A DNA stretch of 64,000 nt from positions 5,851-69,850 of the forward strand of contig CAZCZJ010000001.1 in NCBI GenBank assembly GCA_964503235.1, given 5' to 3'. Origin of the DNA: an uncultured Dehalococcoidaceae bacterium (GTDB lineage Bacteria > Chloroflexota > Dehalococcoidia > Dehalococcoidales > RBG-16-60-22). Positions within the stretch are counted from its first letter, which is position 1. Each line of letters starts with the position of its first letter. Below are positions 12,369 to 57,561 of the stretch, one piece after another. A model generated the notes under the pieces. That model was given only the letters and a program-made list of their open reading frames with translations, did no database searches and was not told the DNA's origin. Position numbers and translations under genes: made by a program.

Positions 12369-13925
12369 CTATTCTTTAGCTGTAATATAGTTTGAAGATT
12401 CCGATGCCTCGTTAGGGTCGAAGTTCTTCTTAATTTTCCTCAACAGGATATGGTAATTATGCGCTTCCGGTCCGTACATATCGTGGAGGGCGTCGCTCCA
12501 GACATGGTGGGGCACGCCGAAACGACCCCTTATCGCGGTTTTATTAGCCTCACGGCTGAGCATTCCCTGGACCTTCATGATATGGTCAGGCCCGGCCGGA
12601 TTATAGCGTATAAGAATCTCACCGTGACCGGTATGACCGTGCTCGATGGACTGTATAAACGGGTGAATATAGTCGTCCATGATAAGACCCTGGTCGATAA
12701 GCTGTTGCTTTAAATTCGAGGTATGCAGGATATAGCGGGTCATCAGCGGGAAGACATCCGAACCGCCGACGGTTCCGCCACCCCAACCCGTAGCACGTGA
12801 AGTCTCGCGAATAGAGCCGGTAATTCGAACAAACCTCCAGAGAAAACCAGCGCCCATTACGGGGTCCTCGACGTCCTTAAGCGACATGGCATCGGTCTCC
12901 TTCATTATCTCCTCCAGCGCGCCCTTCTTATAGGCAAAATCGTTGGCGGAATTACCGACGATAATCAACAAAAACCCCGGACCCTGCACCTGGCTGGCAA
13001 ACTTCGCTAAATAGTCCAGGTCTTCCTGGTTATCGGTAGCGATGTTGGAAGCCATCATGGCGGCGTTGAAGCCCATCAACGTGAAGCCTATTTCCGCCTC
13101 TCCCACCCTTTTAACAGCATCAATCGTCACATCAATATCTTTGAAAGACAGGTATCTTATCATGAAGTTCGGCGGCATTTCCGGGTGCCGGTACTGCGGG
13201 CAGACACCTTCAACGGGAAATACTGCCGGACCCGGCCAGTGGTATATCTTTACCGCGCCGGCCGTGAAGACGCCCAATCCGGCCAGAGGTGTGGAGTTAC
13301 CCCTGATAATACCTCTCAAAGACGGTCCGGGACCGTCGCCGCAAAACCAGTCGCCGTGAGAACCGAGGGAGCCCAACTTGACGATTTCGCCGTCGCCGGT
13401 TACCCACTCTACCGCCAGCATATTTCTTTCGGTATAGCTGCCGCTCTGGCTCATGTGTCCCAGACCCACGTGAGATGCCAGCGGCATGACCGAGCAGTTC
13501 GCCCCGGCACCACATTGATTACAGGTCAGACCGCGTTTCATCAATTCGGACTGGAGCTGAGCGCCGATAACGTATGGCTCGACGGCGGCATACATACCCT
13601 TTTCATTTATTTCCAGGATACGGTTCATGCGACGCAGGTCTATCTTGATACAATTCGGCGCTACAGGGTCGCAGTAAAGCCAGCCGGTACTCGATGCCTT
13701 ATACTGTACCTTTTGCTGGTTACAGAGTTTTACGATTGCCTGGACTTCCCGGGTATTAGAAGGGAGAGTCACAGCTTCGAACCGCGGTATATAGGTCACT
13801 TTTTCCGGCATGGTCTTTTTCCGGATAGGAAAAGAATAAGATTCCGTAACAACAGGGTCATCAGAAACATTCTCCGGCCCGAGTATATCCTCTAGTCTTT
13901 TATAAAAATCCCTATCGAGAGCCAT
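12369..13925 (-). CDS. FAD-binding (PCMH/GlcD-type) oxidoreductase subunit, divergent
   Basis: 518 aa. The N-terminal FAD_binding_4-like pattern (FEAVTLPSNTREVQAIVKLCNQQKV...IDLRRMNRILEINEKGMYAAVEPYV) is recognisable. The usual GGGT loop is divergent (ASSTGW). Confidence 0.7.
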   Translation of the reverse strand: MALDRDFYKRLEDILGPENVSDDPVVTESYSFPIRKKTMPEKVTYIPRFEAVTLPSNTREVQAIVKLCNQQKVQYKASSTGWLYCDPVAPNCIKIDLRRMNRILEINEKGMYAAVEPYVIGAQLQSELMKRGLTCNQCGAGANCSVMPLASHVGLGHMSQSGSYTERNMLAVEWVTGDGEIVKLGSLGSHGDWFCGDGPGPSLRGIIRGNSTPLAGLGVFTAGAVKIYHWPGPAVFPVEGVCPQYRHPEMPPNFMIRYLSFKDIDVTIDAVKRVGEAEIGFTLMGFNAAMMASNIATDNQEDLDYLAKFASQVQGPGFLLIIVGNSANDFAYKKGALEEIMKETDAMSLKDVEDPVMGAGFLWRFVRITGSIRETSRATGWGGGTVGGSDVFPLMTRYILHTSNLKQQLIDQGLIMDDYIHPFIQSIEHGHTGHGEILIRYNPAGPDHIMKVQGMLSREANKTAIRGRFGVPHHVWSDALHDMYGPEAHNYHILLRKIKKNFDPNEASESSNYITAKE

Positions 13926-13940
13926 TTTCCATGACCTCCT

Positions 13941-15209
13941 TTATACTGCCCTCTCCACCAGCTCAACGACATCATATACTTTCAATTTGCTACCGGTCTC
14001 TTTAATAGCCTTTACGAAATTCTGCTCACACCAGGGACAGGCAGTCACTATCGCCTCAGCCCCGGTGGCTTCGGCTTCCTTTATCCTCTCATCGGCCGTC
14101 CACAGGGAGAACTCGGGATTGGACTCATTGACACCACCACCAGCACCACAACACCAGGCGTACTCCTTTATCCTTACCATTTCCACCATTTTCAACCCAG
14201 GTATACTCTTAATGACATCCCGCGGCGGTTCGTATACACCGTATGTACCGCGCCGGAACTCCTTATACGGCTCGAAAACACGTATATGTCCCGGTACCTC
14301 CTTGCCCTGCCAGTGTATCCAGGGCTCCCCCAGCCTCCCCAGATAACACGGGTCATGATAGGTTACCGTCATACCCACTTTCTTCTTCGGCTTGAGATTG
14401 CCTTCCTTAATGATCCTGTCCAGATATTCGGTAATATGTACTACTTCCAGGTCTCCCCTGAGTTCATACTTATCATAGAGAACCTTGAATGCCTGATAGC
14501 CGTCAGCACAGCTGGTTACCAGTGTTTTGGCACCAGACTTCTTGATCATTGCCATGTTCTGCTTCGCCTGGTTCAGGAAGTCTTCCTTATAGCCCATCTG
14601 GTAGGCACGACCGCCGCAGCATGTCTCGTTATTACCCCCAATACCAACATCGATACCAGCCTTTTGTAAAAGTTTTACGGTGGCTTTAGCAAGCTTCCAC
14701 ATATCTTTGTTATAGCTGGTCAGGCAGCCGACTTGGTAAATAACATCTACCTTCTCTTTGGTATAGTCTTTTACCTTGAGTCCTGCCGCCCATTCTCCCC
14801 GCTTGCTCCTGGCCCCCGGTACCATCGTGCCCTGTTTCCTGAGACTGCCGATTACCTTGTCTAAAGCCGGGTTGGTATGCCCTTCCTCGACGGCTTTTAT
14901 CCTCGTCTCGTATATCGGCTCTATTACCTCCATGTCCATGGCATACTTACACGATACGTCGCAGGCCCCGCACATCTGGCAGTTGTAGATGATATCCAGA
15001 AGCTTGTCTGTATATTCAAGCCGGTTCTCCAGCATAGCTACGCCAATACCCATACGGCCGCCACCGGAATAGGCGTGAAAGTTATACCTGGATATACTGG
15101 GGCAGACGTTAACAGGCTGATATCCCGATACCTTTTCAAAGGGTATGAATTTACAGGCGGAGCACCTTCGGCACGTTTCCATTTCATTCCGTAAATCTTC
15201 CAGTGCCAT
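13941..15209 (-). CDS. (Fe-S)-binding protein with two CCG domains (GlcF / HdrD-like)
   Basis: 422 aa. N-terminal Cys clusters (CRRCSACKF...CP and CQMCGACDVSC) and two CCG motifs (ETCCGG, WCCGAGGG). Confidence 0.85.
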   Translation of the reverse strand: MALEDLRNEMETCRRCSACKFIPFEKVSGYQPVNVCPSISRYNFHAYSGGGRMGIGVAMLENRLEYTDKLLDIIYNCQMCGACDVSCKYAMDMEVIEPIYETRIKAVEEGHTNPALDKVIGSLRKQGTMVPGARSKRGEWAAGLKVKDYTKEKVDVIYQVGCLTSYNKDMWKLAKATVKLLQKAGIDVGIGGNNETCCGGRAYQMGYKEDFLNQAKQNMAMIKKSGAKTLVTSCADGYQAFKVLYDKYELRGDLEVVHITEYLDRIIKEGNLKPKKKVGMTVTYHDPCYLGRLGEPWIHWQGKEVPGHIRVFEPYKEFRRGTYGVYEPPRDVIKSIPGLKMVEMVRIKEYAWCCGAGGGVNESNPEFSLWTADERIKEAEATGAEAIVTACPWCEQNFVKAIKETGSKLKVYDVVELVERAV

Positions 15210-15258
15210 CTCTATTCCTCCTTGATTTGCCTACTGAAAACCTGACTTCGGAAATGTA

Positions 15259-16725
15259 TTAAAAGCAGAGCTTCCCCGGGTTCATGATACCAGCCGGGTC
15301 AACAATCGATTTCACCTTGCGTAATGTCGTCACTGTGGCCGCATCCCGGTTCATAATCATATCGGTACTTTCACCGTAAGGACGGGAAAAGAAAGCCCCC
15401 TTATCCATCAGCTTTCTCACAGCGCTTACGGATAATTGCTTTACTCTTTCCACATCAACCGGATTTGCCGGATTATAAAAAAGGTCGAATTCAACGTGAT
15501 AATTTACTCCCTGGACTATCGGCTGGATATACACGCCCATATCGGGGGTCGCGTAACCGACCTCCTCAGCGACGCTGTACATTGTCTCTATCAACTCGCC
15601 AACCTTCTGGAAATCCGAAATGAAGAATATTTCATAGCAGGCCCAGTCGGCGGGCGTTTTCCAGTAGAAATCACCCGGTGGTGCCTGCACCGCTTTGAGC
15701 AACTCAAAAGCTGAAATACTACCCAGGGACTGTGCCGGCTCCACACCAACACGCTGACATAATTCCTTGATATCCTGTACCTGTCCCTTGACCCTTTCTT
15801 CGGGCAGGTAGTCATAACCGGCGACGTTATAGAACAGTATCCAAGCAGGCAAAGAGCTTTTTATCCGGTTATAGTCGGCAGGCTTTCCTCTGGCCATAAT
15901 AGTAGCCATATCGGTATTATTTAAGATAAAGCATTCGTTCACCAGCCTCAGTCTCTGCAGCCAGTGTACCGTCTCCATTATCCTGTCCAGGTCCGATGCA
16001 CCTATCAGGAAAGGCTCTTCTGCTTTGGGTATGATTTCGCATCTTGCCGAAGCCCAGGTAACGATGCCTACCGTACCCTGGGCAGCCTGTATTACGCGAT
16101 ACCATGATGCGGAAGACGGTCCGGCTGCCTCTTTCTGCGCCCCACCGACCTCCCACTGTTCCTCCAGCGTGCCCGGTCCGGCAGCGGCTCCGGTGCGGAA
16201 AAGGTCACCGCTGCCATATATAATCTCCACGTCACAGAGAGGGTCGGCGATATCCCAATGGTACTTGGGCATGACCACAGGTTCCCTCTCCAGCATACTA
16301 CCGACAACAGATTTAGATTTCCGGGGCATGAGAGGTATATTCAGCCTGAGACCTTCTTTAGCCACCGCCGGTATCAATTCCCCGAAAGTCACCCCCGGCT
16401 CGAACATGACCACACGGTTGTACCGGTCTACCCTGATTATCTTTGTCATACCGCTCAAATCAACGATAACAGCGCCGCCGACGCTGGGAACGGTATCGCC
16501 GCGAAAATGAGGGGCTCCCGAGCTTACCGGCACCAGCGGGGTATTCGTCTTATTGGCAAGTTTTACTAATTTCTCAATGTCAGCCGTTTTCTTAACTTTC
16601 ACAATGTATTCCGGATTCAGTTTATTAACAAAGCTCATATCGCTGGCATATTCCCCCAGAGCAGCGGGTTTATCACTGACATTCCCGGCGCCGACTATTT
16701 TTATCAGCTTAGCTTTTTCAACCAT
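15259..16725 (-). CDS. FAD-binding (PCMH/GlcD-type) oxidoreductase subunit
   Basis: FAD_binding_4-like region (PEYIVKVKKTADIEKLVKLANKTNTPLVPVSSG...VDLSGMTKIIRVDRYNRVVMFEPGV). The start is moved to the ATG at 16725, which follows GAGGAGG (aatGAGGAGGatattATG). The track start at 16839 adds 38 implausible residues. Confidence 0.8.
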   Translation of the reverse strand: MVEKAKLIKIVGAGNVSDKPAALGEYASDMSFVNKLNPEYIVKVKKTADIEKLVKLANKTNTPLVPVSSGAPHFRGDTVPSVGGAVIVDLSGMTKIIRVDRYNRVVMFEPGVTFGELIPAVAKEGLRLNIPLMPRKSKSVVGSMLEREPVVMPKYHWDIADPLCDVEIIYGSGDLFRTGAAAGPGTLEEQWEVGGAQKEAAGPSSASWYRVIQAAQGTVGIVTWASARCEIIPKAEEPFLIGASDLDRIMETVHWLQRLRLVNECFILNNTDMATIMARGKPADYNRIKSSLPAWILFYNVAGYDYLPEERVKGQVQDIKELCQRVGVEPAQSLGSISAFELLKAVQAPPGDFYWKTPADWACYEIFFISDFQKVGELIETMYSVAEEVGYATPDMGVYIQPIVQGVNYHVEFDLFYNPANPVDVERVKQLSVSAVRKLMDKGAFFSRPYGESTDMIMNRDAATVTTLRKVKSIVDPAGIMNPGKLCF

Positions 16726-16900
16726 AATATCCTCCTCATTATCTGTCCTGTATACCTGAAAAATGGAATACCACCACAGGGTAAAATAGTCATTCGTATT
16801 TTCGCCTTCATGATAGCTTTCCGTTAGTTCTGATGTCAATTATCCCGGTTATACTATGTATTAGAGTCAGCTTTAATAGCTATTGTTTTAAGGATTCTTA

Positions 16901-21610: not shown

Positions 21611-21660
21611 GGGTACCGACTATAAATATATCACATTAGTCGGTGCCCTTTTTTATTTTT
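21611..21660 (+). terminator. Intrinsic-terminator-like hairpin plus U-run inside the catalase 5' leader (possible attenuator)
   Basis: GGGUACCGACUA (21611-21622) pairs with UAGUCGGUGCCC (21637-21648) over 12 bp with one G-U. The loop is 14 nt and is followed by TTTTTTATTTTT (21649-21660). It lies 28 nt before the catalase ATG. Confidence 0.45.
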
Positions 21661-21687
21661 CTGAAATTTGACCACAGGAGGTTTTTC

Positions 21688-23190
21688 ATGAAAAAGGGGA
21701 AAAAGACCTACACAACCGGATTCGGCGCTTCAGTAGATAACGACCAGAACAGCAAGGCAGCCGGCGCCTACGGCCCGCTGTTGATTCAGGACACCCACCT
21801 GCTGGAGAAGCTGGGGCACTTCGACCGGGAGCGTATCCCGGAGCGCGTCGTCCACGCCAAGGGCGGCGGGGCGCACGGCTACTTTGAGGTTACGGCGGAT
21901 GTTACCAAGTACACCAAGGCTAAATTCCTCTCGGAAATCGGCAAGCGTACCGATGTCTTTGCCCGCTTTTCTACCGTCGGCGGGGAGAGAGGTTCGGCCG
22001 ACGCCGAGCGTGACCCCCGCGGCTTCGCCCTGAAGTTCTACACCGAAGAAGGCAACTACGATATGACCGGCAACAACACCCCCGTCTTCTTCATCCGCGA
22101 CCCCTTAAAATTCCCGGACTTTATACACACGCAGAAGCGACACCCGGGCTCCAATCTCAAGGACGCCAGCATGTTCTGGGACTTCCTTTCGCTGACGCCG
22201 GAATCGGTCCACCAGGTAACCATTCTCTTCTCCGACCGGGGCACGCCGCGTACTTTCCGCAACATGAACGGCTATAGCAGCCATACCTTCAAGTGGTACA
22301 ACGCCAAGGGCGAGTATTTCTGGGTGAAATATCACTTCAAGACAGAGCAGGGCATCGACAACCTGACCCGTGACGAGGCCACCGAGATGAAGGGGAAAGA
22401 CCCCGACCACGCCGTCCGTGACCTCTATCAAGCCATCGAGCGCGGCGAATACCCATCCTGGCGGCTGGAGATGCAGGTAATAACCCCGGAGCAGGCCGAG
22501 AAATACCGCTTCGATTCCTTCGATGTCACCAAGGTCTGGTTCCACGCCGATGTCAAGCCGTTTACCATCGGGCGGATGGTGCTCAACCGAAACCCCAAGA
22601 ACTACTTCGCCGAGGTGGAGCAGGCGGCTTTCTCTCCGGCTAACTTCGTGCCCGGTATCGCGGCCTCGCCGGACAAGCTCTTGCAGGGGCGTCTCTTCTC
22701 CTACCACGACACGCACATCCACCGTCTGGGCGTCAACTACCCGATGATTCCCATCAACCGCCCCAAGAACGCCGTCAACTACTACCAGCGCGACGGTTCT
22801 ATGAACGTCGATAACGCCGGCGATGGTCCCAATTACTACCCCAACAGCTTCGGCGGGCCGGAGCCGCAGCCCGATGCCGCCGAGCCGCCTTTCGAGGTCA
22901 GCGGTGAGGCGCGCCGTCACCCCTATACCCACCCCAACGACGACTTCTTCCAGCCCGGCGAGCTTTACCGGCGGGTAATGACTGATATGGACCGCAACCA
23001 CCTCATCGGTAATATCAACACGCATTTATGTAACGCCCAGAAGCGAATCCAGCTACGCCAAGCGGCCGTCTTCTATAAGTGCGACCCGGAGTACGGCAGC
23101 CGTGTTGCCGAAGGTCTGGGACTCGACGTGAAAGAGGTAAAGAGCCTTGCCGAGATGACCCAGGACGAACGTGCCGAGGCAACATCCTAG
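21688..23190 (+). CDS. katA: Monofunctional heme catalase
   Basis: About 500 aa. Motifs include [51 protein letters not shown] and [17 protein letters not shown]. The start is set at the ATG at 21688 after AGGAGG. The track start at 21643 lies inside the terminator U-run. Confidence 0.95.
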
Positions 23191-23280: not shown

Positions 23281-24357
23281 TTATTCCAGGTGAAAGCTCC
23301 TGATGACGGCATCAATGATCGCCTCGTCATGGGCAAAGGTGCTGACCGGACCGAAACCCATTAGGTTGAAGCCGTCCTCCCCCCGCATGACAATAACACA
23401 TTTCGCCGTGAGGTAAAAGCCCTCCATGGTGGCATTAAACACGAACTCATAGGCCGGGGTGCCATCATCCATGGTTATCTCGCCTTCGGAAAGCAGCTCG
23501 TAGTCGGGGAAATTATCAGTATATACCTGCCTGGCTCCGGCCACCGCCGCCTCAACACTGCCCGCTCCCGTCATCGTCCTGACCATCACCTCGGGCACTC
23601 CCGTATCGGCCCGGAGGTCGAGGATTTCCGCAAACCCACCGGTGGTACAGTCAGACCATCCCTCCGGGTAGGTGATGGAGAATCCGAATTCGGCGTTGGT
23701 ATAGGTACCGCCGGGACTGGAGGCCGGCGGCTCATAAGTATAAGGCAGCAGCTCAAAGCTGTCGATGATATCGTCCAGCAGCGGCCGCTGCGCATCGAAC
23801 CTGTCGGGTTCTCCGTAGACACCGACCATGATAAGCTGTCCCTCCCGCACCAGGACGATATAGCGGTACTTCTGCAGCTCACCAACGTCCTCATCACCCT
23901 GGCCGAGCATCTCGTAGCCGGAGATATCGTCGCCGATGGTGACGTAACCCTCGGAGAACATCTCGTATTCCGGCATCGTCTCCATGTACTCTTTAATTTC
24001 GGCAACGGCGTCTTCAAGGACAATCTCCCCGGTCTGGTAGTCTACCGATACGAATACCGAGAGACTCCCTTCGGGTTCGTTGCAGATGAAATAACAACTT
24101 GTCGGCCCGCCGTGAGTGTTCTCGTCCCATCCCTCGGGATGCTCAAAGGAAAAGCCGTGCTCCGTGTTCTCGTAGAGGGTCATGGTCAGGGCCGGGGAAC
24201 CAGGTGTAGTCGTTTGGGTTGAAGTTGAAGTAGTGGCGGTTGTTGTTGCAGATGTCGTTGTGGCCGCCGTTGTCCCGCACTGGCAGCCAACTATGAACAG
24301 GGCCAGCACGGCCAGAACAGTCAAGATAAGGCTCATCCCGCCTCTTTTGCCTGTCAT
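23281..24357 (-). CDS. Secreted lipoprotein with a Thr-rich linker and two tandem homologous domains, function unknown
   Basis: Signal peptide and lipobox (LALFIVGCQCG). Low-complexity TTAATTTSATTTATTSTSTQTTTPG. Two repeats start ..HGFSFEHPEGWDE.. and ..FGFSITYPEGWSD.. A PsbP/DUF1795-like fold is only suspected. Confidence 0.6.
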   Translation of the reverse strand: MTGKRGGMSLILTVLAVLALFIVGCQCGTTAATTTSATTTATTSTSTQTTTPGSPALTMTLYENTEHGFSFEHPEGWDENTHGGPTSCYFICNEPEGSLSVFVSVDYQTGEIVLEDAVAEIKEYMETMPEYEMFSEGYVTIGDDISGYEMLGQGDEDVGELQKYRYIVLVREGQLIMVGVYGEPDRFDAQRPLLDDIIDSFELLPYTYEPPASSPGGTYTNAEFGFSITYPEGWSDCTTGGFAEILDLRADTGVPEVMVRTMTGAGSVEAAVAGARQVYTDNFPDYELLSEGEITMDDGTPAYEFVFNATMEGFYLTAKCVIVMRGEDGFNLMGFGPVSTFAHDEAIIDAVIRSFHLE

Positions 24358-24477: not shown

Positions 24478-25746
24478 TCATACCGCTCTTTCTACCAGCT
24501 CAACGACATCATATACTTTCAATTTGCTACCGGTCTCTTTAATAGCCTTTACGAAATTCTGCTCACACCAGGGACAGGCAGTCACTATCGCCTCAGCCCC
24601 GGTAGCTTCAGCTTCCTTTATCCTCTCATCGGCCGTCCACAGTGAGAACTCAGGATTAGACTCGTTAACGCCGCCACCGGCACCACAACACCAGGCGTAT
24701 TCCTTTATCCTCACCATCTCTACCAGTTTCAACCCAGGTATACTCTTAATGACATCCCGCGGCGGCTCGTATACACCGTATGTACCGCGCCGGAACTCCT
24801 TATACGGCTCGAATACACGTATATGTCCCGGTACCTCCTTGCCCTGCCAGTGTATCCACGGCTCTCCCAGCCTCCCCAGATAACACGGGTCATGATAGGT
24901 TACCGTCATACCCACTTTCTTCTTCGGCTTGAGATTGCCTTCCTTAATGATCCTGTCCAGATATTCGGTAATATGTACTACTTCCAGGTCTCCCCTGAGT
25001 TCATACTTATCATAGAGAACCTTGAATGCCTGATAGCCGTCAGCACAGCTGGTTACCAGTGTTTTGGCACCAGACTTCTTGATCATTGCCATGTTCTGCT
25101 TCGCCTGGTTCAGGAAGTCTTCCTTATAGCCCATCTGGTAGGCACGACCGCCGCAGCATGTCTCGTTATTACCCCCAATACCAACATCGATACCAGCCTT
25201 TTGTAAAAGTTTTACGGTGGCTTTAGCAAGCTTCCACATATCTTTGTTATAGCTGGTCAGGCAGCCGACTTGGTAAATAACATCTACCTTCTCTTTGGTA
25301 TAGTCTTTTACCTTGAGTCCTGCCGCCCATTCTCCCCGCTTGCTCCTGGCCCCCGGTACCATCGTGCCCTGTTTCCTGAGACTGCCGATTACCTTGTCTA
25401 AAGCCGGGTTGGTATGCCCTTCCTCGACGGCTTTTATCCTCGTCTCGTATATCGGCTCTATTACCTCCATGTCCATGGCATACTTACACGATACGTCGCA
25501 GGCCCCGCACATCTGGCAGTTGTAGATGATATCCAGAAGCTTGTCTGTATATTCAAGCCGGTTCTCCAGCATAGCTACGCCAATACCCATACGGCCGCCA
25601 CCGGAATAGGCGTGAAAGTTATACCTGGATATACTGGGGCAGACGTTAACAGGCTGATATCCCGCCACTTTCTCCAGAGGAATAAATTTACAGATATTGC
25701 ATTTATTGCATAATTCCATGTCTTCCCGGTAATCCTGTAATGCCAT
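24478..25746 (-). CDS. (Fe-S)-binding CCG-domain protein, paralog of 13941..15209
   Basis: 422 aa, the same length and no indels (constant offset of 10537 nt). The protein is identical to copy 1 apart from the first ~28 residues and one M/L change. Confidence 0.85.
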   Translation of the reverse strand: MALQDYREDMELCNKCNICKFIPLEKVAGYQPVNVCPSISRYNFHAYSGGGRMGIGVAMLENRLEYTDKLLDIIYNCQMCGACDVSCKYAMDMEVIEPIYETRIKAVEEGHTNPALDKVIGSLRKQGTMVPGARSKRGEWAAGLKVKDYTKEKVDVIYQVGCLTSYNKDMWKLAKATVKLLQKAGIDVGIGGNNETCCGGRAYQMGYKEDFLNQAKQNMAMIKKSGAKTLVTSCADGYQAFKVLYDKYELRGDLEVVHITEYLDRIIKEGNLKPKKKVGMTVTYHDPCYLGRLGEPWIHWQGKEVPGHIRVFEPYKEFRRGTYGVYEPPRDVIKSIPGLKLVEMVRIKEYAWCCGAGGGVNESNPEFSLWTADERIKEAEATGAEAIVTACPWCEQNFVKAIKETGSKLKVYDVVELVERAV

Positions 25747-28569: not shown

Positions 28570-29367
28570 TCAGGAAGCCGTTGATACGGGGCAGGCAGGT
28601 ATTATTCCCCGCCGCTCTGCAATTTGTTTGATGATTTCCTCACCTTCAGGAGATAATCCCAGTAATCCCAGTTCTTCCTGCAGAACTTCAGGTGTCCCGA
28701 AACCGCCAGCGTACCCGTTGGCACGGGCTACCGCTGTAGACAGGGTGAAATCGTTAATATCAGGGTATTTCGCCTCGAACTCGGCTTCCAGTCGCGGTAT
28801 TCCCCGCAGGTAGTACTTCTGATGATAGTCTTCGGCCGGATAGAATATTCCCGCGGGGACAATCTCGGTGAATATCTGCCCGTTCATACTTGCCTGCAGA
28901 TTATCTCTGGATTCCTCGGCCAGCGCCTTCTGCTCATCATTATGATAGAAGATAACAGACTTGTACTGGTCCGACCACGGCATAGTCGTAGGAGTATGAC
29001 TGTACCAGAATACATCCAGAAGGTCGCGATAAGAAATCACCGACGGGTCATATACGATTTCAATCGTTTCACTGTGATTGCCGAGACTGTGATACGTGGG
29101 ATTTTCTTTGTCACCGCCCGCATAGCCGACGCGCGTGCTGATGACACCCTGGAGACTCCCGAACCGGGAGTCGGGACCCCAGAATCAACCCAATGCAAAT
29201 GTAGCCGTCTCAGTGACTGACGGTCTGTTTGTATCTAACGTTGGTTTTAATTTATCCATACCCATGACACTCAACTCCTCGCTTGTGCAGTTAGTTAAAA
29301 TAGTAGCTGTGACAATTAACAACATTAATAGAGCGATAATTATAATCGAAAACCTGGTACTCTTCAT
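28570..29367 (-). CDS. msrA: Peptide-methionine (S)-S-oxide reductase MsrA, predicted selenoprotein (UGA at 29185-29187 read as Sec), with an N-terminal signal/anchor
   Basis: The two track ORFs (29185..29367 and 28570..29040) are in the same frame with no other stop between them. Joined, they read ...ETATFALG-U-FWGPDSRFGSLQGVISTRVGYAGG...DPSVISYRDLLDVFW...EDYHQKYY. The TGA sits at the Cys of the MsrA GCFWG motif. Confidence 0.8.
29149..29182 (-). promoter_or_regulatory. Candidate bacterial SECIS stem-loop immediately 3' of the msrA UGA
   Basis: The RNA reads CUGG-GGUCCC-GACUCCCG-GUU-CGGGAGUC-U-CCAG. There is a perfect 8-bp apical stem (29154-29172) and a 4-bp basal helix. The apical loop starts with G about 20 nt after the UGA. 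Confidence 0.65.
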
Positions 29368-29395: not shown

Positions 29396-29629
29396 CTAAA
29401 GGCTGACAATCTCTATCGCTTTCACTGGACAGGCTCTTACGCAATCTCCGCATGCCCGGCAATAAGATGGTTCCGTCATGGGCACGAAATACGGCTCTTC
29501 CTGTTTGAGCAGTTTAGAAGGGCAGACCTGTGCCGCCGCACAAACACCATCGTCACACTCACTCGGGGTACACTTGGTGTAATCCAGCAGCGCCGTTTTC
29601 CTCGTCATCTGTACCATCTTTAATCCCAT
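29396..29629 (-). CDS. Small 4Fe-4S ferredoxin-like protein
   Basis: 77 aa. It has a CRACGDCVRACP motif and a second, atypically spaced Cys set (CTPSECDDGVCAAAQVCP). Confidence 0.7.
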   Translation of the reverse strand: MGLKMVQMTRKTALLDYTKCTPSECDDGVCAAAQVCPSKLLKQEEPYFVPMTEPSYCRACGDCVRACPVKAIEIVSL

Positions 29630-29674
29630 CCTGTCACGACTACTAAAGCCAACGGCTTTTTAACATCCGGATCC

Positions 29675-29857
29675 TCAGGTAGGAAATGAAAGGTTCCCTT
29701 TTGTCGAGGAGCCCTTGGTAAAACCTTTGGATATTCTCCTCTTAGGCCCCTTTTCACCACACATAGGGCAGGTAACCTTATTATCGTTCTCAAATAGTCC
29801 CCGGAATGATTCAAACTCTTCACCACATTTACGGCACTCGTATTCATATATTGGCAT
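29675..29857 (-). CDS. FmdB-family zinc-ribbon protein (CxxC...CxxC)
   Basis: 60 aa. MPIYEYECRKCGEEFE...VTCPMCG is the canonical N-terminus of the FmdB/CxxC_CxxC_SSSS family. Confidence 0.75.
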   Translation of the reverse strand: MPIYEYECRKCGEEFESFRGLFENDNKVTCPMCGEKGPKRRISKGFTKGSSTKGNLSFPT

Positions 29858-33297: not shown

Positions 33298-33927
33298 CTA
33301 CTTCTTGGCCGTCGTCCCCTTAAGCTTCTTCTGCACTTCCTGATAGCCCATATCAAAAGCCTTCAGATTGGCATCGATAGCCTTGGCAGGAACACGGTTG
33401 CGCACCACTTCCTTGGCGATATCCACGGATATCGGCAGCAGTCCGGTCCCGAACAGCGCCCCCATCATAACAACATTGGTTGTCTGGATATTACCGGCTT
33501 CCTTGGCGATTTCACTGGCGTCCAGGGCAATTACTTTCTCCGAAACGCTATTGAGTTTTTCCAGTATGGCTTCAATCGTCGGATAACCGCTCTGCCCCAG
33601 AAAGACAGTGAACGGTAACACCTTGGTCGTATTGAGTATCACGATACTGGACCGGGAGAGGTACTGGATATTCCTTACCGCTTCCGAGGGCTCCACCGCC
33701 AGGAGGATATCGCATTTGCCTTCCATGGTCAGCGGCGAGTAGATATCGTCGCCCAACCGCAGATTGCTGAACACCGAGCCACCCCGCTGTGCCATGCCCA
33801 GCACCTCGGAGCCTTTGACGCCGATACCGCCCTTGACCGCTGCCGTTCCCAGCAACTCGGACATCAGCACCACACCCTGTCCCCCGACACCGCATATGAT
33901 TACTTCCAGCACTTTGTTATCAGCCAT
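33298..33927 (-). CDS. iorB: Indolepyruvate / 2-oxoacid:ferredoxin oxidoreductase, beta (gamma-domain) subunit
   Basis: 209 aa. VIICGVGGQGVVLMSELLG is the POR-gamma/IorB-type N-terminus. The start overlaps the iorA stop (AATGGCTGA). Confidence 0.8.
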   Translation of the reverse strand: MADNKVLEVIICGVGGQGVVLMSELLGTAAVKGGIGVKGSEVLGMAQRGGSVFSNLRLGDDIYSPLTMEGKCDILLAVEPSEAVRNIQYLSRSSIVILNTTKVLPFTVFLGQSGYPTIEAILEKLNSVSEKVIALDASEIAKEAGNIQTTNVVMMGALFGTGLLPISVDIAKEVVRNRVPAKAIDANLKAFDMGYQEVQKKLKGTTAKK

Positions 33928-36900
33928 TTTTCTCTCCTGCTATTATAGCATCGTGCGGGCATACTTGGGCACAGACCCCACAACCCGGACACTGGGTGCT
34001 ATCTATTATCACATCTTCACCCTCTATAATGATGGCGGGACAGCCAAGTAGATTTATACAGATTCGGCAATCGCAGGAAAGACAGCGTTCCGCTTCCTTG
34101 ATGGCATCTTCCCGGCTCAAGCCCAGCTCTACCTCATGGAAATTGCCCTGTCTTTGCTCAACCGGAATTATCGGCATATCAACCCTCGGTTGCTGGCCAA
34201 TCCCGAAAGTATCTACGGTAAGTTTGCTCTCGTAAACGCCTTCGCCCTCCCGACCAGTATCCAGAGGTTCGCCCTTTAGATACCTGTCGATGGATACGGC
34301 GGCTTTCTTACCGGCGGCCAGGGCTTCGATAACGGTAGCCGGTCCGCTGACAACATCACCGCCAGCAAAGATACCCTTAATACCGGTCTGCAACGTTACC
34401 GGGTCGGCTTTAATCAGTCCGTTCGATACCGCTTTCGAAGCTTCGCCGGACATCATTTGTAAATCGGGCTGCTCACCGATAGCCGAGATTATCAAAGGAG
34501 TATCTATTACGAATTCAGAGCCGGCTACGGGTTCCGGTCGTCTCCGACCGCTTTCGTCGGGCTCTCCCAGCTTATTCTTGATAAATTCCATACCGATAAC
34601 CTTACCCCCATCAGCAATAACGCGATTCGGTCCGGCCAACAGTTGCAGCTTTACTCCTTCTTTCTCCGCTTCGGCTATTTCCTCCTCGATGGCCGGCATT
34701 TCGGCACGGGAGCGCCGGTAAACGATATTCACATCTCTAAAGCCCAGGCGTACACAGGTACGGGCGCAGTCGACGGCTACGTTGCCGCCACCGACAATGA
34801 CCACTTTCTCCCCAGTGGGTACTTTATCTCCCATACTGACTTTGTGGAGTAAATCAGTGCCGTCAATAACACCCTCGGCATTCTCATTCTCAACCCCGAG
34901 ATTGCGGCTCTTATGTGCTCCGATAGCAATAAATACAGCGTCATAGTCTTTATGTAAAGTCGACAGTTCCACATCCCTGCCCAATCGCGTATTCAGTTTT
35001 ACTTCCACTCCCAGCTTGTCGATAATATCCATCTCATTATTCAAGATATCCCGGGGCAGCCGGAACTCGGGAATACCCACCGCCATCATGCCACCCAGCT
35101 TGGACAGCGCTTCAAAGATGGTTACGCTATAGCCCTCTTTCCTTAGGTTATAGGCAGCCATGATTCCCGCCGGCCCGCCGCCGATAATCGCCACCTTCTT
35201 GCCTTTTTCCGTGGCGATTGAATAGTCGTCCGCAACCTGGCCATAATCGACGGCGCTGCGTTTGAGGGCATTGATGGCAATAGCTTCCTCGATATCAGCC
35301 CGTATGCACTTCTGCTCGCAGGGACGCGTACAGACCCGCCCGATTATACCGGGGAACGGTAAAGCCTCTTTTATCAACGCCAGGGCTTCGTCAAATTTAC
35401 CTTCTTTTATCAAGCCCACATAGCCTTTAATATCGATATGCAGGGGGCAGGTAGCCTGGCAGGCGGGCGGGCTGCCGGCAACGCATTTCTCCTGGTCGAC
35501 CTCGTATGGCAGGGTTTTGACTCCCTGCCGACGTTTCTCGCGGGTATCCAGAATATTACAGAGTCGCCGTACGACAACCAGGGAAGGCCCTTCAAATCTG
35601 ATAGCTTTTTCCATAGTATCAATAAGCTCAGACAGGTCGAACGCGTCCACGACTTCGACGAATTTAACGCCGCTGGCTCTGGCGATATCCTCGATTTTTA
35701 CCGGAACACTATCGTCCGCAGGAGCACCGGGGTGGGGTTGAAATCCCGTCATGCCGGTGGTGCCGTTATCGAGGACCACCATGGTCACGTAGGCTTTATT
35801 GAACACCGAGTTAATCATCGGAGGGATGCCGGAGTGAAAGAACGTGGAATCACCCAGATGGGCTACCACCGGTACGTCGAGAACGTGCGGGAAGCCGCTG
35901 CCCAACCCAAAAGCTCCGCCCATACAGATAGCTATGTCATCGGAGTTCAGCGGCGGATTAGCCGCCAGAGCATAGCAGCCGATATCTCCGGTCTTCACCG
36001 GTGTTTTCCCGGTTTCTTGTTCATAACGCTGGCAGGCGATATTAATAGCGTAAAAAGACGACCGGTGCGGGCAACCGGCGCACATCGTCGGCGGGCGAAC
36101 GGGCAAAAGCGACTCCGTCTCAATCTTTATCTTATCTATCGCCGCAAAATCAACCGATGGTTTGACTCCGGTCAGGGTACTGAGAGCCTCGGCGACCTGG
36201 CGAGTAGAAAGCTCTCCCACCAGCGATAGCAGGTCTTTCCCGTGGATTTTCACGTCGATATCGTTGTCCTTGGTAATGACTTTAACTTCATCCTCAACGA
36301 AAGGCTCCAGCTCTTCCGCCACCAGGACGGTCGGTACCGATTTCAGCAACTGCTTGGTTAGCTCTGCGGGTAAAGGATAAGGCGTACCTATCTTCAACAC
36401 GGAAATCTTATCTTCCAGCCCCAACAATCTGATTGCTTCAATCGTATATCCATAGGAAATACCGTTGGCGATAACTCCCAGTTTTGCTCCGTCTTTAAGA
36501 GCAAGCCGGTTGAAAGGCAGCGAATCCACCGCTTTCCTTATCCTCGCCATCCTGTCTATCACCAGACGGCGGTTTTTTCTGAAATTGGCCGGTAAACATA
36601 CCAGCTTGACCGGGTCTTTAACGAACTTGCCCTCCCGAACATCACTGGATATCTCACCGAAGACAATATCGCTCCGGGCATGACCGATACGCGTTACCGA
36701 CCTCAACATGAACATCTGCCCGAACTCCTCGGATAGGCGGAAGGCATCCGCCATCATGTCCTTGGCTTCCTGTCCGGTGGCCGGTTCCAGAACCGGTATG
36801 TAACCCTGCCGGGCAATGTAACGGTTGTCCTGCTCGTTCTGCGAGCTCCACTGTCCGGGGTCGTCGGCGGACACCAGTACCAGTCCCCCGCGGGCGCCCA

Positions 36901-37225
36901 TGTAGCTGGCCGTCATCAGGGGGTCGTGGGCGACATTCACGCCGACGTGCTTCATGATAGCTAACGAACGCAGACCGCTCACGGAACCCGCGATAGCTAC
37001 TTCCAGGGCAACTTTCTCATTTACCGACCACTCGGCGTAAAAACCGATGTCTTTAGAGACATTGATCAGCGTTTCCGTGATTTCACTCGACGGCGTACCG
37101 GGGTATGCCGCCACGCATTGGACACCGGCTTCAATGGCACCCCTGGCGAATGCTTCGTTCCCGAGCATGAACAGCCTGGCACCGGGGGCATCGGAACTGA
37201 CCGTTAACTCAGCTACTTCGTTCAA
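33920..37225 (-). CDS. IorA-type 2-oxoacid:ferredoxin oxidoreductase alpha subunit with an inserted GltD/NfnB-like Fe-S + FAD/NAD(P)H module before the C-terminal 2x[4Fe-4S] domain
   Basis: 1101 aa. Residues 1 to ~590 form the IorA TPP module ([17 protein letters not shown]...GDSTFFHSG). Residues ~590-1030 form the GltD-like module (CQATCP...[73 protein letters not shown]). The C-terminus is CLSCDCRIC...[12 protein letters not shown]. Confidence 0.85.
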   Translation of the reverse strand: [1101 protein letters not shown]

Positions 37226-43476: not shown

Positions 43477-45594
43477 ATGAACACTTTTGTCTTAACCAAG
43501 CTTTATCAACTGGCACATCTGTATAACATACAGACAGCCTACTATGATGTGTCTCACCATAGGCGGCAAGCCTCTGTAGAGAGCCTGCTGGCCGTAATTA
43601 AAGCCCTGGGAGCACCGGTAGCCTCCCTGAATGATGTCGCCTCGGCTTTACGGAAAAGAAGGCAGGCACTCCAGCAACGGATTCTGGAACCGGTTACCGT
43701 AGTCTGGAATGGTAAACGCCCGATAATCAGGGTATGTGTACCGGGTAGTACTGCTGATGCTCCCTGGCGCGGTCAACTGGATATGGAGGATAACAGACGA
43801 AAGACCTGGCAATGGCCGGCTGCCGACCTGCCCGTCCTGGAGAAAACGGATATCGAGGGGACCAGCTACGTAGTAAAGCAGATTAATCTGCCGGAAAGCC
43901 TCCCGTGGGGCTATCATAGATTCTCGTTAGTAACAGAGGGGAGTCATGCCGAGACACTTATAATATCGGCACCCGATAAGGCATACCTGCCTCCCGGAGA
44001 ACCAAGGAACCATACTTGGGGCGTCTTCATACCACTGTACGCTTTGCACAACCGAAGCAGCTGGGCCAGCGGTGATTATGCAGCACTCGGGTCTCTGGCT
44101 GAATGGATATCGTCACTGGGTGGACAGACTATAGCCACACTTCCGCTACTGCCGACCTTTCTTGATGAACCCTTTGAACCCAGTCCCTACGCACCTGTAA
44201 GCCGATTACTCTGGAACGAATTTTATATCAATATAGAAAATGTGCCAGAGCTTTCTAAATCCTCGCAGGCAAAGGCGCTGCTGCAATCATCATCGTTTCT
44301 CTCCGAAATCGAGAAGCTGCGGGATTTGCCGCTGGTAGACTACCGCCGACAGATGGCGTTAAAGCGCCGCGTTCTGGAGGAATCCTGCATCTACCTGACT
44401 GCAGAGAAGTCAGACCGGTTCCAGGATTTCAGGGAATTCATTCAGGCTAATCCCATCATTGAGGACTACGCCCGTTTCCGGGCAACCATGGAAAAGCTAC
44501 GTTCTCCCTGGTCAAACTGGCCAAAACGGTTACGTGATGGCACCCTGAATGAAGGCGACTATGAAGAGAAAAACAAGCTTTACCATATGTATGCCCAGTG
44601 GCTAGCTCATGAGCAGGTTCAAGCTCTTTCTGAGAAATCCCGCGAAAAGGATGTGACATTATATTTTGACCTGCCTCTGGGAACCCACCCCGAAGGCTAT
44701 GACGTGTGGCGTGAGCGTGAAAACTTCGCTCTGGAGGCAACGGCCGGAGCACCGCCCGATTCCGTTTTCACCTGGGGACAGGACTGGCTGTTTCCACCAC
44801 TACATCCGGAAAGAATAAGGGACCAGCGATACTGCTACCTCAGGGACTACCTACGCCATCATCTCCAACATGCCGGTATGCTTCGCATCGACCATGTCAT
44901 GGGCTTGCACCGGCTCTTCTGGATTCCAAAAGGTCTTGACGCCAGCCATGGCGTTTACGTACGCTATCAAGCCGAGGAGCTTTACGCCATCCTGATGCTC
45001 GAGTCTCACCGTCATCGGAGCGTTATCGTAGGAGAAGATTTGGGTACGGTGCCGTCCTATGTCAGACCGACCATGTCGCGGCATGGCCTCCAGCGCATGT
45101 ATGTGTTACATTACGAACTTGCTGATTCAAATACGTTACATCGTCCACAGCGAAACACTGTTGCCAGCCTGAATACTCATGATATGCCCCCCTTCGCCTC
45201 TTTCTGGCAGGGACTTGATATTCCGGAAAGGCTGAATCTAGGGCTGCTGAATGATGAAAGCGCTCGGGCTGAGAAAAAAGAGCGTCAGAAAACCAGGCGT
45301 GCTCTGGCAACCTTTCTACACAATAAAGGCTGGCTGCCAGGCGATGATACCGATGTTCGTGCTGTTTTCAGGGCCTGTTTATCATTCCTGAGTGCCAGCC
45401 TGGCCAGTGTCGTTCTGGTAAATCTGGAAGACTTGTGGCAGGAAACCAAGTCCCAGAATGTACCCAGTACCGACGACAGAAATCCCAATTGGCGCCGAAA
45501 GACTCGCTACACACTTGAGGAGTTTTGCCAGTTGCCGGAGTTTCGTGATACTCTGAAGGAAATGGACAGGCTCAGGAAACAGGCGGAGAAATGA
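43477..45594 (+). CDS. malQ: 4-alpha-glucanotransferase (amylomaltase, GH77) with an N-terminal extension
   Basis: 705 aa. GH77-type segments are WGVFIPLYALH..., LRIDHVMGLHRLFWIP, VIVGEDLGTVP and ASLNTHDMPP. Confidence 0.85.
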   Translation: MNTFVLTKLYQLAHLYNIQTAYYDVSHHRRQASVESLLAVIKALGAPVASLNDVASALRKRRQALQQRILEPVTVVWNGKRPIIRVCVPGSTADAPWRGQLDMEDNRRKTWQWPAADLPVLEKTDIEGTSYVVKQINLPESLPWGYHRFSLVTEGSHAETLIISAPDKAYLPPGEPRNHTWGVFIPLYALHNRSSWASGDYAALGSLAEWISSLGGQTIATLPLLPTFLDEPFEPSPYAPVSRLLWNEFYINIENVPELSKSSQAKALLQSSSFLSEIEKLRDLPLVDYRRQMALKRRVLEESCIYLTAEKSDRFQDFREFIQANPIIEDYARFRATMEKLRSPWSNWPKRLRDGTLNEGDYEEKNKLYHMYAQWLAHEQVQALSEKSREKDVTLYFDLPLGTHPEGYDVWRERENFALEATAGAPPDSVFTWGQDWLFPPLHPERIRDQRYCYLRDYLRHHLQHAGMLRIDHVMGLHRLFWIPKGLDASHGVYVRYQAEELYAILMLESHRHRSVIVGEDLGTVPSYVRPTMSRHGLQRMYVLHYELADSNTLHRPQRNTVASLNTHDMPPFASFWQGLDIPERLNLGLLNDESARAEKKERQKTRRALATFLHNKGWLPGDDTDVRAVFRACLSFLSASLASVVLVNLEDLWQETKSQNVPSTDDRNPNWRRKTRYTLEEFCQLPEFRDTLKEMDRLRKQAEK

Positions 45595-47432: not shown

Positions 47433-47436
47433 CCGG

Positions 47437-52206: not shown

Positions 52207-52216
52207 GCCCCTGCTT

Positions 52217-54184: not shown

Positions 54185-54194
54185 TTTTACGTCT

Positions 54195-57100: not shown

Positions 57101-57554
57101 GGGCATCCTTGTATTCCTCCGCGGTGTCGCTCCACACATAGAAATCGCGGTAGCGGCTCCCCGGTGGGGACTTGCGTGCCCGCTGGAACCAGGGGTGCTG
57201 GTCGGAGGTGTGATTAACCACCAGCTCGGTGATAACGCGGATGCCGTGGCGGTGCGCCTCGTCAACAAAGGTCTGGAAGTTAGCCATCGTGCCGTAGGCA
57301 GGCTGGATATTAAAATAATCGGAGATATCATAGCCGTCGTCCCTGAGAGGAGAAGGATAAAAGGGAAGCAGCCAGACCGCGGTAATCCCGAGGTCTTCAA
57401 GATAATCGAGCTTATCTATCAATCCCAATAAGTCACCCGCACCATCGGCATCGCTGTCGCTAAAAGCACGGACATGGACCTCGTAGATTATGGCATCCTT
57501 ATACCATAACGGGTTATCGTCGACTTGCCATGATTCTTTACTTCGTCTAGCCAT
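54195..57554 (-). CDS. treS: Trehalose synthase (maltose alpha-D-glucosyltransferase) fused to maltokinase
   Basis: 1119 aa. The N-terminal GH13 TreS part shows WYKDAIIYEVHVRAFSDS, DGMRVDAVPYL and FLRNHDELTLE. The C-terminal ~450 aa are Pep2/Mak kinase-like (RIRCHGDYHLGQVLYTGNDFVIIDFEGEP). Confidence 0.9.
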   Translation of the reverse strand: MARRSKESWQVDDNPLWYKDAIIYEVHVRAFSDSDADGAGDLLGLIDKLDYLEDLGITAVWLLPFYPSPLRDDGYDISDYFNIQPAYGTMANFQTFVDEAHRHGIRVITELVVNHTSDQHPWFQRARKSPPGSRYRDFYVWSDTAEEYKDARIIFKDYETSNWAWDPVGKAYYWHRFYSHQPDLNYDNPATRKAILRVMDFWLRMGIDGMRVDAVPYLYEREGTSCENLPESHAFIKELRAHIDKKFKNRMLLAEANQWPEDAVAYFGDGDEFHMAFNFPIMPRLFMALRMEDRFPIIDILQQTPAILDNCQWALFLRNHDELTLEMVTDEERDYMYRVYAADTTARLNLGIRRRLAPLLSNDRKKIELMNSLLFSLPGTPVIYYGDEIGMGDNFYLGDRNGVRTPMQWNPGRNAGFSHANPQRLYLPPIIDPEYHYEAVNVENQLNNTDSLLWWMKRIIALRKRYQAFGRGSIEFLSPENRKVLTYLRRYEGETILVVANLSHLAQQTQLDLSEFNGWRPVDLFGRVEFAPVVDGKYYFTLSPYAFFWFSLEQEPAEALSLHAPPTEEIREVPVMRETEESLFGKKENWFILDAVLLDYIKSRRWFRGKAREAWGAEIQDIVPLHFDSSNAYIILFQVNYSEGEPETYAIPVAVTPSEKGDKLGEGYPNAIIAKLKQRGKNGEDVLFDSMVDKDFCAMLLKAMGRRRTFKGKSGEIQTSPTRIFRRVRGSGDTDLSPVPMNVEQSNTSVMYGNQLFLKLFRRLEEGINPDVEISKFLTGNTPFINISQVAGTLEYQQGRRKPLSLAILQSFVPNEGDAWAYTLDFLERYLGEVMTHPTVQAPPIPRRPLLSLSKEPPALAQETIGPYLASAQLLGQRTAELHIALASGLQNPDFAPEPYTMMYQTSLYQSLRGYAIRTMRLLEERLRHLPEEQREEARQILDMEKDIVERYNLIRKQKIAAVRIRCHGDYHLGQVLYTGNDFVIIDFEGEPARSLSERRLKRSPLRDVAGMLRSFHYATHSAIMKQASLLSKTEDSLPLLQRWAQYWYTWVSAEFLNAYLDIMAQTGLLPDKPDQLKILLDAFLLDKALYEVSYELNNRPDWVSVPLQGILQIMETGG

Positions 57555-57561
57555 ATCTTAC

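Follow-up and report, generated by a model that had tools for sequence, protein, structure and literature searches.

A probable selenocysteine methionine sulfoxide reductase A with an export-type N-terminus and a candidate internal start in a Dehalococcoidia-like genome

The msrA gene and its in-frame UGA codon

The 64-kb stretch of DNA analysed here (the window) carries on its minus strand a gene for methionine sulfoxide reductase A (msrA, product MsrA) that is crossed by an in-frame UGA codon. Two open reading frames (ORFs) of this strand, 29185..29367 and 28570..29040, are pieces of one msrA frame, and the translation of 29367..28570 gave 265 residues in which TGA 29187..29185 is the sole internal stop. 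A first-pass annotation of the window had placed the two ORFs in a single frame, seen no further stop in the gap between them and written out a joined peptide ending in IIPACPVSTAS; our translation agrees on the gap and on the frame, which this TGA alone interrupts, and reproduces the peptide exactly. The codon falls in the nucleophile slot of the motif FALG-U-FWG (residues 57-64 of the joined MsrA; U, selenocysteine, Sec), and the earlier placement of the TGA at the catalytic Cys of the MsrA motif holds both in translation and in the alignment of homologs. The gene and its domains are as follows:

28570..29367, minus strand: complete msrA coding sequence, 265 codons including one putative Sec codon, with the TGA stop at 28572..28570
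29185..29187, minus strand: UGA codon 61, predicted to be read as Sec, at the nucleophile position of the G-U-F-W-G motif
28807..29208, minus strand: MsrA catalytic (PMSR) domain, residues 54-187, defined by the Pfam match and including Glu100
28615..28803, minus strand: C-terminal helical domain of the Clostridium oremlandii type, residues 189-251, defined by an alignment to Protein Data Bank (PDB) entry 4LWJ that runs to residue 251

The alignment of the joined 265-residue product to Pfam PF01625 (PMSR), which the first-pass annotation had called for, gave 155.1 bits over residues 54-187, far above the cutoff of 23.7, and the match to TIGR00401 reached 135.9 bits (cutoff 108.1). Among solved structures, those of the C. 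oremlandii selenoprotein MsrA with Sec replaced by Cys (CoMsrA; PDB 4LWJ and 4U66) match best, and phmmer placed residues 45-251 on residues 2-206 of CoMsrA in 4LWJ (E 2e-56). Glu100 aligns with the catalytic Glu55 of CoMsrA and is invariant in our alignment A1. The helical domain gave a weak match to Pfam PF20939 (E 0.003; 17.7 bits, below the cutoff of 23.7), and the AlphaFold model of a homolog with 50% identity (P0020; mean pLDDT, the predicted local confidence, of 88.5) superposed on 4LWJ with a TM score of 0.90 over 202 columns. In CoMsrA, the helical domain is required for an intact active site (PMC4333827). A tail of 60-70 residues past the conserved core had been noted in the first pass; because the 4LWJ alignment spans to residue 251, most of this tail is the known CoMsrA helical domain, and the excess over CoMsrA is confined to the final 14 residues, among them Cys259. 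We consider it very probable that the gene encodes one intact Sec-containing MsrA of the two-domain C. oremlandii type, in a genome that probably belongs to the Dehalococcoidia (Chloroflexota).

The codon was compared in two sets of relatives, namely the 80 closest loci among one-genome-per-species bacterial and archaeal genomes (codon scored in 79) and 80 metagenome loci from a search seeded with Cys-type proteins (codon scored in 75). At the position of 29187..29185, 72 of the 79 genome loci and 63 of the 75 metagenome loci have TGA, and the other seven and 12, respectively, have TGC or TGT. At the column where Cys or Sec was to be looked for in homologs, TGA is thus the majority and the remainder are Cys codons, and the earlier description of Sec-containing MsrA as rare does not hold among the closest ~155 public relatives. 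The hosts of the first 80 loci include 36 Dehalococcoidia and other Chloroflexota and 28 deltaproteobacterial or Desulfobacterota-type metagenome-assembled genomes (MAGs), besides Nitrospirota, Syntrophomonadaceae, and others; the TGA-bearing relatives come from Chloroflexota, Desulfobacterota-type, Nitrospirota, Bacillota, and other MAGs. An independent assembly (L081), with 87% protein identity, has the same gene order, TGA, and termini as the window. The 56 nt 3' of the UGA are identical in the two, yet 25 of the 127 core codons differ synonymously.

The hairpin downstream of the UGA codon

A stem-loop is located directly 3' of the UGA codon:

29154..29172, minus strand: putative bacterial Sec insertion sequence (SECIS) hairpin with an 8-bp stem and a GUU loop; conserved core pairs 29170..29165 with 29161..29156

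The hairpin GACUCCCG-GUU-CGGGAGUC (29172..29154) begins 12 nt after the UGA, its loop G stands 20 nt after the UGA, and it folds alone at -12.7 kcal/mol. The first-pass annotation had described the same 8-bp stem at the same distances and had compared it with bacterial SECIS elements, and both statements stand. As given in a recent review (PMC13188914, Fig. 2A), the bacterial SECIS consensus has a loop of 3-9 nt, an upper stem of 4-16 bp, a minimum free energy <= -7.5 kcal/mol, a distance of 16-37 nt from the UGA to the apical loop, and, within the first two nucleotides of the loop, a G that G or U usually follows; the msrA hairpin lies within every one of these limits. On both window strands, a perfect stem of at least 8 bp in bacterial SECIS geometry follows four of the 1,988 TGA triplets (0.2%), and among these four the msrA triplet alone lies in an open frame.

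Covariation was assessed in an ungapped alignment of 134 distinct TGA-bearing sequences, with 500 shuffles and six slid controls. The 8-bp helix is paired in 80.7% of the cells and shows two-sided changes in 68 cells, against 20 ± 3 in the shuffles, none of which reaches the observed value. The covariation score of the helix is 0.215 compared with 0.093 after shuffling (0/500 as high), and all six slid controls are lower. Several core pairs are exchanged as pairs: pair 24-38 is CG in 76 sequences, UA in 13, UG in 13, AU in 8, GC in 3, and GU in 3; pair 25-37 is UA in 77 and GC in 28; and pair 29-33 is GC in 100 and AU in 10. Across 71 sequences, both loop U are invariant and conservation of the loop G is 90% or more; in the 134, all three loop positions are at least 90% conserved. 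These compensatory changes alter the peptide, from Ser to Ala (UCC to GCC) in one arm and from Ser to His, Leu, Gln, or Arg in the other; conservation of the RNA takes precedence here over that of the protein. In addition, synonymous sites are frozen in the TGA forms, with CGG for Arg in 55 of 58 and GGG for Gly in 71 of 73, and UUC behaves likewise.

The Sec forms keep 5.4-5.5 of the six core pairs, whereas the Cys forms (n = 19) keep 2.7-3.9; the mean hairpin energy is -9.6 kcal/mol in the Sec forms vs -4.1 kcal/mol in the Cys forms, which use GGC, GGA, and CGC. Two Cys forms have a near-intact stem (L015 with 5/6 core pairs and L087 with 6/6), as expected of a recent change from Sec to Cys. 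The first-pass annotation had staked its reading beforehand on conservation of the hairpin in UGA-containing orthologs; the hairpin is conserved there, with covariation, and decays in the Cys orthologs. We regard the decisive evidence for the SECIS hairpin as comparative, not thermodynamic, and this evidence indicates selection at the RNA level that maintains the hairpin in orthologs with the UGA. SelB and Sec-tRNA(Sec) would bind the GUU-loop hairpin, leading to the insertion of Sec at codon 61.

The proposed extension of the stem by a CUGG/CCAG helix fared less well. CUGG (29182..29179) is able to pair with CCAG (29152..29149) in the window, as the first pass had it, but the pairing is not conserved (44% of cells paired), and the extension together with the two outermost stem pairs is paired in only ~44-50% of sequences. 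The RNAalifold consensus of 71 sequences contained the pairings UGA/UCG and CUGGG/CCCGG; the bases involved are invariant and show no compensatory change, and this structure was rejected for the covarying hairpin.

Public gene calls of the family were also inspected. Gene callers split or truncate the gene, P0001 being called as a 156-aa protein, and other public gene calls begin msrA after the TGA, with products of 154-188 aa. The JGI proteins P0003 (locus L084) and P0007 (L083), among others, contain 'GWFWG', in which the Sec TGA is translated as Trp; these calls apparently reflect the choice of code 4 on short contigs. The relative L082 (JGI Ga0265297_10006850, L082:3160-3162) has TGG (Trp) at the catalytic codon with the SECIS hairpin GACUCCUGGUUCGGGAGUC intact, which reflects either recent inactivation of the enzyme or a variant of the assembly. 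Most of this MsrA family is mis-annotated in public gene calls. Since databases hold this msrA and the majority of its relatives as split or truncated genes or as translations with Trp for TGA, a widespread selenoenzyme is under-counted, and the conserved hairpin NNCCCGGUUCGGGNN, 12-14 nt after the UGA, provides a simple rule for rescuing these msrA genes.

Some results weigh against the Sec reading. The 66-nt region folds at -23.8 kcal/mol against -21.5 ± 2.8 in shuffles (z = -0.84), which is unexceptional, and RNAalifold favours the competing CUGGG/CCCGG pairing over the hairpin. A scan of the in-frame TGA junctions of the window yielded no second selenoprotein candidate. No selA, selB, selD, or tRNA-Sec was found in the 64-kb window by Pfam scans of ~40 ORFs, by Rfam, or by ARAGORN, the latter two (Rfam at gathering thresholds) giving no match anywhere in it, although within such a window this result is uninformative rather than negative. 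In favour of the Sec reading, Dehalococcoidia MAGs are listed among the selenoprotein-richest genomes (PMC13326102).

Three other explanations were weighed. The hairpin might be a by-product of the conserved peptide P-D-S-R-F-G-S, with no function in the RNA, as the low folding z and the partial stems retained by Cys forms with the same peptide (L015, L087) would allow; we hold this to be very unlikely, since the TGA forms change the peptide yet keep the pairing, their synonymous codons CGG, GGG, and UUC are frozen, and the Cys forms average 2.7-3.9 of the six core pairs and use other codons. A pseudogene with a nonsense mutation, or a TGA that is an assembly or sequencing error for TGC or TGT, would be in line with the splitting and truncation of msrA by gene callers (P0001), and the TGG of L082 shows that point changes at the codon occur. 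The same TGA, however, stands in 135 independent related loci and in L081, both halves of the gene are intact and conserved, and the RNA structure downstream covaries, so that we regard this explanation as extremely unlikely. A reassigned UGA (code 4 or 25) read as Trp or Gly, for which the W in some JGI calls (P0003, P0007) could be cited, appears next to impossible: Trp or Gly as the nucleophile would give a dead enzyme, and the other in-frame TGA junctions of the window join frames unlike coding sequence. Moreover, 12 of the 39 Pfam-supported window genes stop at TGA with products of the length expected, among them msrA and the adjacent, convergent gene for a tungsten-type aldehyde:ferredoxin oxidoreductase (AOR), and the genetic code is therefore standard. 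Because the TGA is shared by the relatives and L081 and the code of the window is standard, we exclude a nonsense mutation private to this gene, a fault of assembly, and reassignment of the codon. The first-pass reading of a selenoprotein is borne out by the shared TGA, the covarying hairpin, and its decay in the Cys forms, and we conclude, from this comparison, that the gene is a selenocysteine MsrA and not a pseudogene.

The N-terminus, the candidate internal start and the C-terminal cysteine

Three further elements lie within the gene at its N-terminal end and one at its C-terminal end:

29290..29367, minus strand: predicted export or anchor signal, residues 1-26, consisting of MKSTR, the hydrophobic core F6-L24, and TN, followed by Cys27
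29263..29280, minus strand: candidate internal start, with GAGGAG at 29280..29275, a 9-nt spacer, and ATG (Met35) at 29265..29263
29257..29259, minus strand: second internal ATG in the sequence (Met37, 29259..29257)
28573..28614, minus strand: 14-residue C-terminal tail RRGIIPACPVSTAS, with Cys259 at 28593..28591

The hydrophobic core F6-L24 has 19 residues (29352..29296), and a polar linker follows the signal. An in-frame hydrophobic segment is present in 67 of the 79 genome loci; counting the 152 distinct loci with a visible N-terminal ORF boundary, a strongly hydrophobic 15-residue stretch is present in 122 (~80%), in 121 of which an in-frame start precedes it. The hydrophobic N-terminus, which had been called unusual in the first pass, is accordingly the norm of the family, and L081 keeps the N-terminal architecture without indels or stops; these observations indicate that the upstream frame is coding. 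The signal types vary within the family. Canonical lipoboxes (LVGC, LAGC, IVGC, and similar) occur often in more distant members, and the closest Dehalococcoidia relatives have anchor-like segments without Cys. Seven deltaproteobacterial homologs (L030, L048, L063, L065, L073, L074, and L079) carry twin-arginine motifs resembling RRxF[LMV]K (NRRSFMK, GRRTFLK, KRRAFVR, SRRSLIK), followed by a lipobox-like xxAC, which suggests export of a selenoenzyme without an obvious cofactor by the twin-arginine translocation (Tat) route. So varied a set of signals suggests that a location outside the cytoplasm is under selection.

In the window, the lipobox rule ([LVI][ASTVI][GAS]-C) is broken by L-T-N-C, with Asn at position -1, and Cys27 is absent from the close relatives L002, L003, and L008. 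Because the lipobox fails, the Cys is not conserved, and two basic residues precede the 19-residue hydrophobic stretch, the segment is most likely an uncleaved N-in signal anchor. The N-terminus of the P0020 AlphaFold model forms a helix and then a disordered linker. We infer that such an anchor would place the catalytic domain outside the cytoplasmic membrane. In the homologs L017 and L034, the signal is replaced by a soluble segment with ...VTFDPAEITVAKMVEALTRAGTYRG..., fused ahead of the MsrA domain, which by eye looks like a heavy-metal-associated domain.

Internal starts were scored as in-frame linker ATG codons with AGGA, GGAG, or GAGG 5-12 nt upstream as a Shine-Dalgarno (SD) word. Such a combination occurs in 78 of 145 loci; codon shuffles give 15, and the two remaining reading frames 8 and 1. 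The probability of ATG given an SD word upstream is 13.6% per codon vs 2.1% (odds ratio 7.5; Fisher 5e-29, with shared ancestry ignored), and in the gene body the trend is reversed (0.9% after an SD word vs 1.4%). The SD-ATG spacer peaks at 5-9 nt, and the internal ATGs cluster at codons -33 and -26, counted from that of Sec, with Met35 at -26; family members without the hydrophobic extension begin at about -33. SD motifs precede 20 of 37 window genes against a background of 8.9%. The NCBI annotation starts the Cys homologs P0074 and P0120 internally, despite an in-frame signal peptide and lipobox upstream. SD words are found at both starts in only 31 of the 122 signal-bearing loci. The conserved internal ribosome-binding site (RBS) and ATG are new here and suggest that the exported form may not be the sole product.

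An exported enzyme with its own extracellular reductant has several observations against it. At the upstream ATG 29367 the SD, GAAAGGTAG, is weak, whereas the internal ATG 29265 has GAGGAG at 9 nt, and for the window gene the exported form is therefore a predicted product. A census of 145 flanking ORFs from 79 related loci did not place CcdA/DsbD or thioredoxin among the 25 most frequent families (the last with n = 2), and Pfam scans of ~40 window ORFs returned neither CcdA nor thioredoxin.

Three accounts of the starts can be compared. The production of the long form is ranked first, and the family-wide signal argues for it. Dual isoforms from nested starts, with ATG 29367 giving an anchored or exported form and ATG 29265 a cytoplasmic, CoMsrA-like form, would extend this best explanation rather than replace it. 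They are favoured by the enrichment of ATG with SD in the linker, by the per-codon odds ratio and its opposite trend in the gene body, by the spacer peak, by the start of signal-less members near -33, by the internal NCBI starts of P0074 and P0120, and by the use of strong SD motifs in the window genome. On the other hand, the Fisher test takes no account of shared ancestry, Glu, Gly, and Lys codons abound in the linker and give rise to SD-like words, the motif might have survived from an ancestral start or serve as a pause site, and only 31 of the 122 signal-bearing loci have SD words at both starts; we therefore hold the dual-isoform account as possible but tentative. The sole use of the internal start, which would give a cytoplasmic Sec-MsrA below an untranslated hydrophobic frame, is consistent with the stronger GAGGAG and with the comparison to L081, where the N-terminal 44 codons show 10 non-synonymous and 4 synonymous changes. 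We judge it unlikely, since an open frame with a start, basic residues, and a hydrophobic stretch is kept in 122 of 152 N-termini from several phyla, lipobox and twin-arginine motifs are frequent upstream and unexpected of untranslated sequence, and L081 has the same architecture free of indels and stops. For the long form, as for the gene as a whole, the anchored enzyme is the preferred reading, to which the internal RBS and ATG (Met35) may add a cytoplasmic isoform.

The MsrA enzymes of E. coli and cattle have C-terminal recycling cysteines. Of the 72 TGA entries, 28 have a Cys, usually within Cys-Pro, among their final 14 residues; these include all 11 of the closest loci (L001-L011), and several Cys forms have such a Cys as well. 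The C. oremlandii enzyme is without a tail Cys and is of the 1-Cys type recycled by glutaredoxin (PMC4479559). CoMsrA has neither a candidate resolving Cys nor an N-terminal targeting segment; the full-length window MsrA departs from it in both respects, and a short form from Met35 would share the lack of a targeting segment. By analogy, Cys259 is plausible as a resolving Cys that forms a selenenylsulfide with Sec61. Attack of the Sec61 selenolate on Met-S-sulfoxide would yield a selenenic acid, which Cys259, carried on the flexible Cys-Pro tail, may resolve to the selenenylsulfide, and a thiol-disulfide oxidoreductase would then reduce the Sec61-Cys259 selenenylsulfide. A wider proposal is that in anaerobic MAGs of the Chloroflexota, Desulfobacterota-type, Nitrospirota, and Bacillota groups a single Sec-MsrA gene supplies both sides of the membrane: an upstream start with an export signal and a nested RBS and ATG behind it would yield the two forms from one mRNA, the exported form having the Cys-Pro tail and an extracellular reductant. 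This is more speculative, and we hold it as possible but less likely than not. In NCBIfam, profile positions 141-224 of NF041383 ('VPGUxxT family thioredoxin-like (seleno)protein, type 2') match the window MsrA domain; this family seems to be a thioredoxin-like selenoprotein fused to MsrA and is a possible lead to the natural reductant.

Gene neighbourhood and comparison with known systems

The msrA gene is flanked by a small ferredoxin-like protein, an FmdB-type zinc ribbon, and the tungsten-type AOR. The genes of the 60-aa FmdB-type zinc ribbon and the 77-aa ferredoxin-like protein lie directly upstream of msrA (29396-29857, minus strand); the stop of the ferredoxin-like gene is 28 nt ahead of ATG 29367, and the same order is found in L081 (L081:684-1145). 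Because this order is kept in L081, co-transcription of the zinc-ribbon, ferredoxin, and msrA genes is possible. Among the 145 flanking ORFs of the 79 related loci, the commonest families are FAD-dependent oxidoreductases (7), MsrB/SelR (5), and AOR (4), and no conserved partner gene was found.

About 6 kb from msrA are a full-length catalase gene (21643-23190, plus strand) and a PsbP-like gene (23281-24357, minus strand). The genome looks anaerobic, judging from AOR and ferredoxin-dependent oxidoreductases, and the catalase and PsbP-like genes may form a loose oxidative-stress neighbourhood. Elsewhere in the window, a 1,101-aa fusion (33920-37225, minus strand) combines the 2-oxoacid:ferredoxin oxidoreductase modules POR_N and TPP_enzyme_C with GltD-like Fer4_20/Pyr_redox_2 and a terminal 4Fe-4S motif, and a POR gamma-like gene is next to it (33298-33927). 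Two 422-aa paralogs with Fer4_8 and CCG domains are encoded at 13941-15209 and 24478-25746 (minus strand), the former between two FAD_binding_4 proteins in a GlcD/GlcF-like set (12369-16839, minus strand). An alpha-glucan cluster (43477-62828) encodes MalQ, several alpha-amylase family proteins, a GH57 protein with DUF3536, a branching enzyme, a 1,119-aa TreS-like protein, GlgE, and glucan phosphorylase, and fits a GlgE-type glycogen/trehalose pathway.

To our knowledge, a single bacterial Sec-MsrA has been characterised, a cytoplasmic 1-Cys enzyme. The form that prevails here carries an export signal, and many members also have a C-terminal Cys, which raises the questions of what reduces an extracellular selenoenzyme in strict anaerobes and why extracellular methionine repair should be selenium-dependent in them; the knowledge of Sec decoding itself is unchanged. 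Sec-MsrA with the GUFWG motif is described as an experimentally established bacterial selenoprotein family in PMC13188914, and it is listed for Syntrophobacter fumaroxidans by 2006 in Table 3 of PMC1794560. The catalogued bacterial Sec-MsrA ('GUFWG/H' family) is the same family, with the same motif, in anaerobic, selenoprotein-rich lineages (PMC1794560, PMC13188914, PMC13326102), and the searchable text of the selenoproteome surveys makes no mention of export signals, a C-terminal Cys-Pro tail, or a nested start. In the searchable literature, we found no description of an exported or lipoprotein Sec-MsrA, nor any two-domain Sec enzyme that combines export signal, C-terminal Cys-Pro tail, and nested start. 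The Sec-MsrA family is already known, and the signal and the possible second start are only moderately new.

The SECIS of fdhF has a bulged U, whereas the msrA stem has none. The msrA hairpin shares with the bacterial SECIS consensus (the Zhang and Gladyshev model, E. coli fdhF type) a stem-loop directly 3' of the UGA, but its triloop is very small and its stem perfect. The enzyme of Clostridium/Alkaliphilus oremlandii OhILAs (PDB 4LWJ, 4LWK-M, 4U66) has in common with the window MsrA the UGA-coded Sec in G-U-F-W-G, the two domains, and the catalytic Glu. It is a 209-aa cytoplasmic 1-Cys enzyme reduced by glutaredoxin and not by thioredoxin (PMC4479559), and the window MsrA has, beyond it, a 44-residue N-terminal extension and the 14-residue C-terminal Cys-Pro tail.

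Cys-type Msr enzymes that are exported and served by dedicated CcdA/thioredoxin partners are well documented (PMC3914529, PMC9404787). In S. pneumoniae MsrAB2 (with Etrx1/2 and CcdA), H. influenzae periplasmic MsrAB, and Neisseria PilB, an N-terminal signal or anchor likewise places the MsrA domain outside the membrane (PMC3914529, PMC9404787), a location predicted from sequence features in the window MsrA. All three use Cys and are fused to MsrB, PilB having a thioredoxin domain in addition, and their genes lie beside CcdA/thioredoxin-like reductants; in contrast, the window MsrA is predicted to use Sec, and it is neither fused to MsrB nor accompanied by CcdA/thioredoxin-like neighbours.

Mammalian MsrA reportedly uses dual initiation sites for two locations, as the title of a 2010 paper by Kim et al., cited in PMC6162418, has it. 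In that case, a mitochondrial and a cytosolic form arise from one mRNA with two in-frame starts, and the targeting sequence is on the upstream one only, which is also the arrangement proposed for the window gene. The mammalian protein is a eukaryotic Cys enzyme whose dual initiation was experimentally shown, whereas the two starts of the window gene are deduced from its sequence; the nested start, if functional, would be an unusual bacterial instance of dual localisation by alternative initiation.

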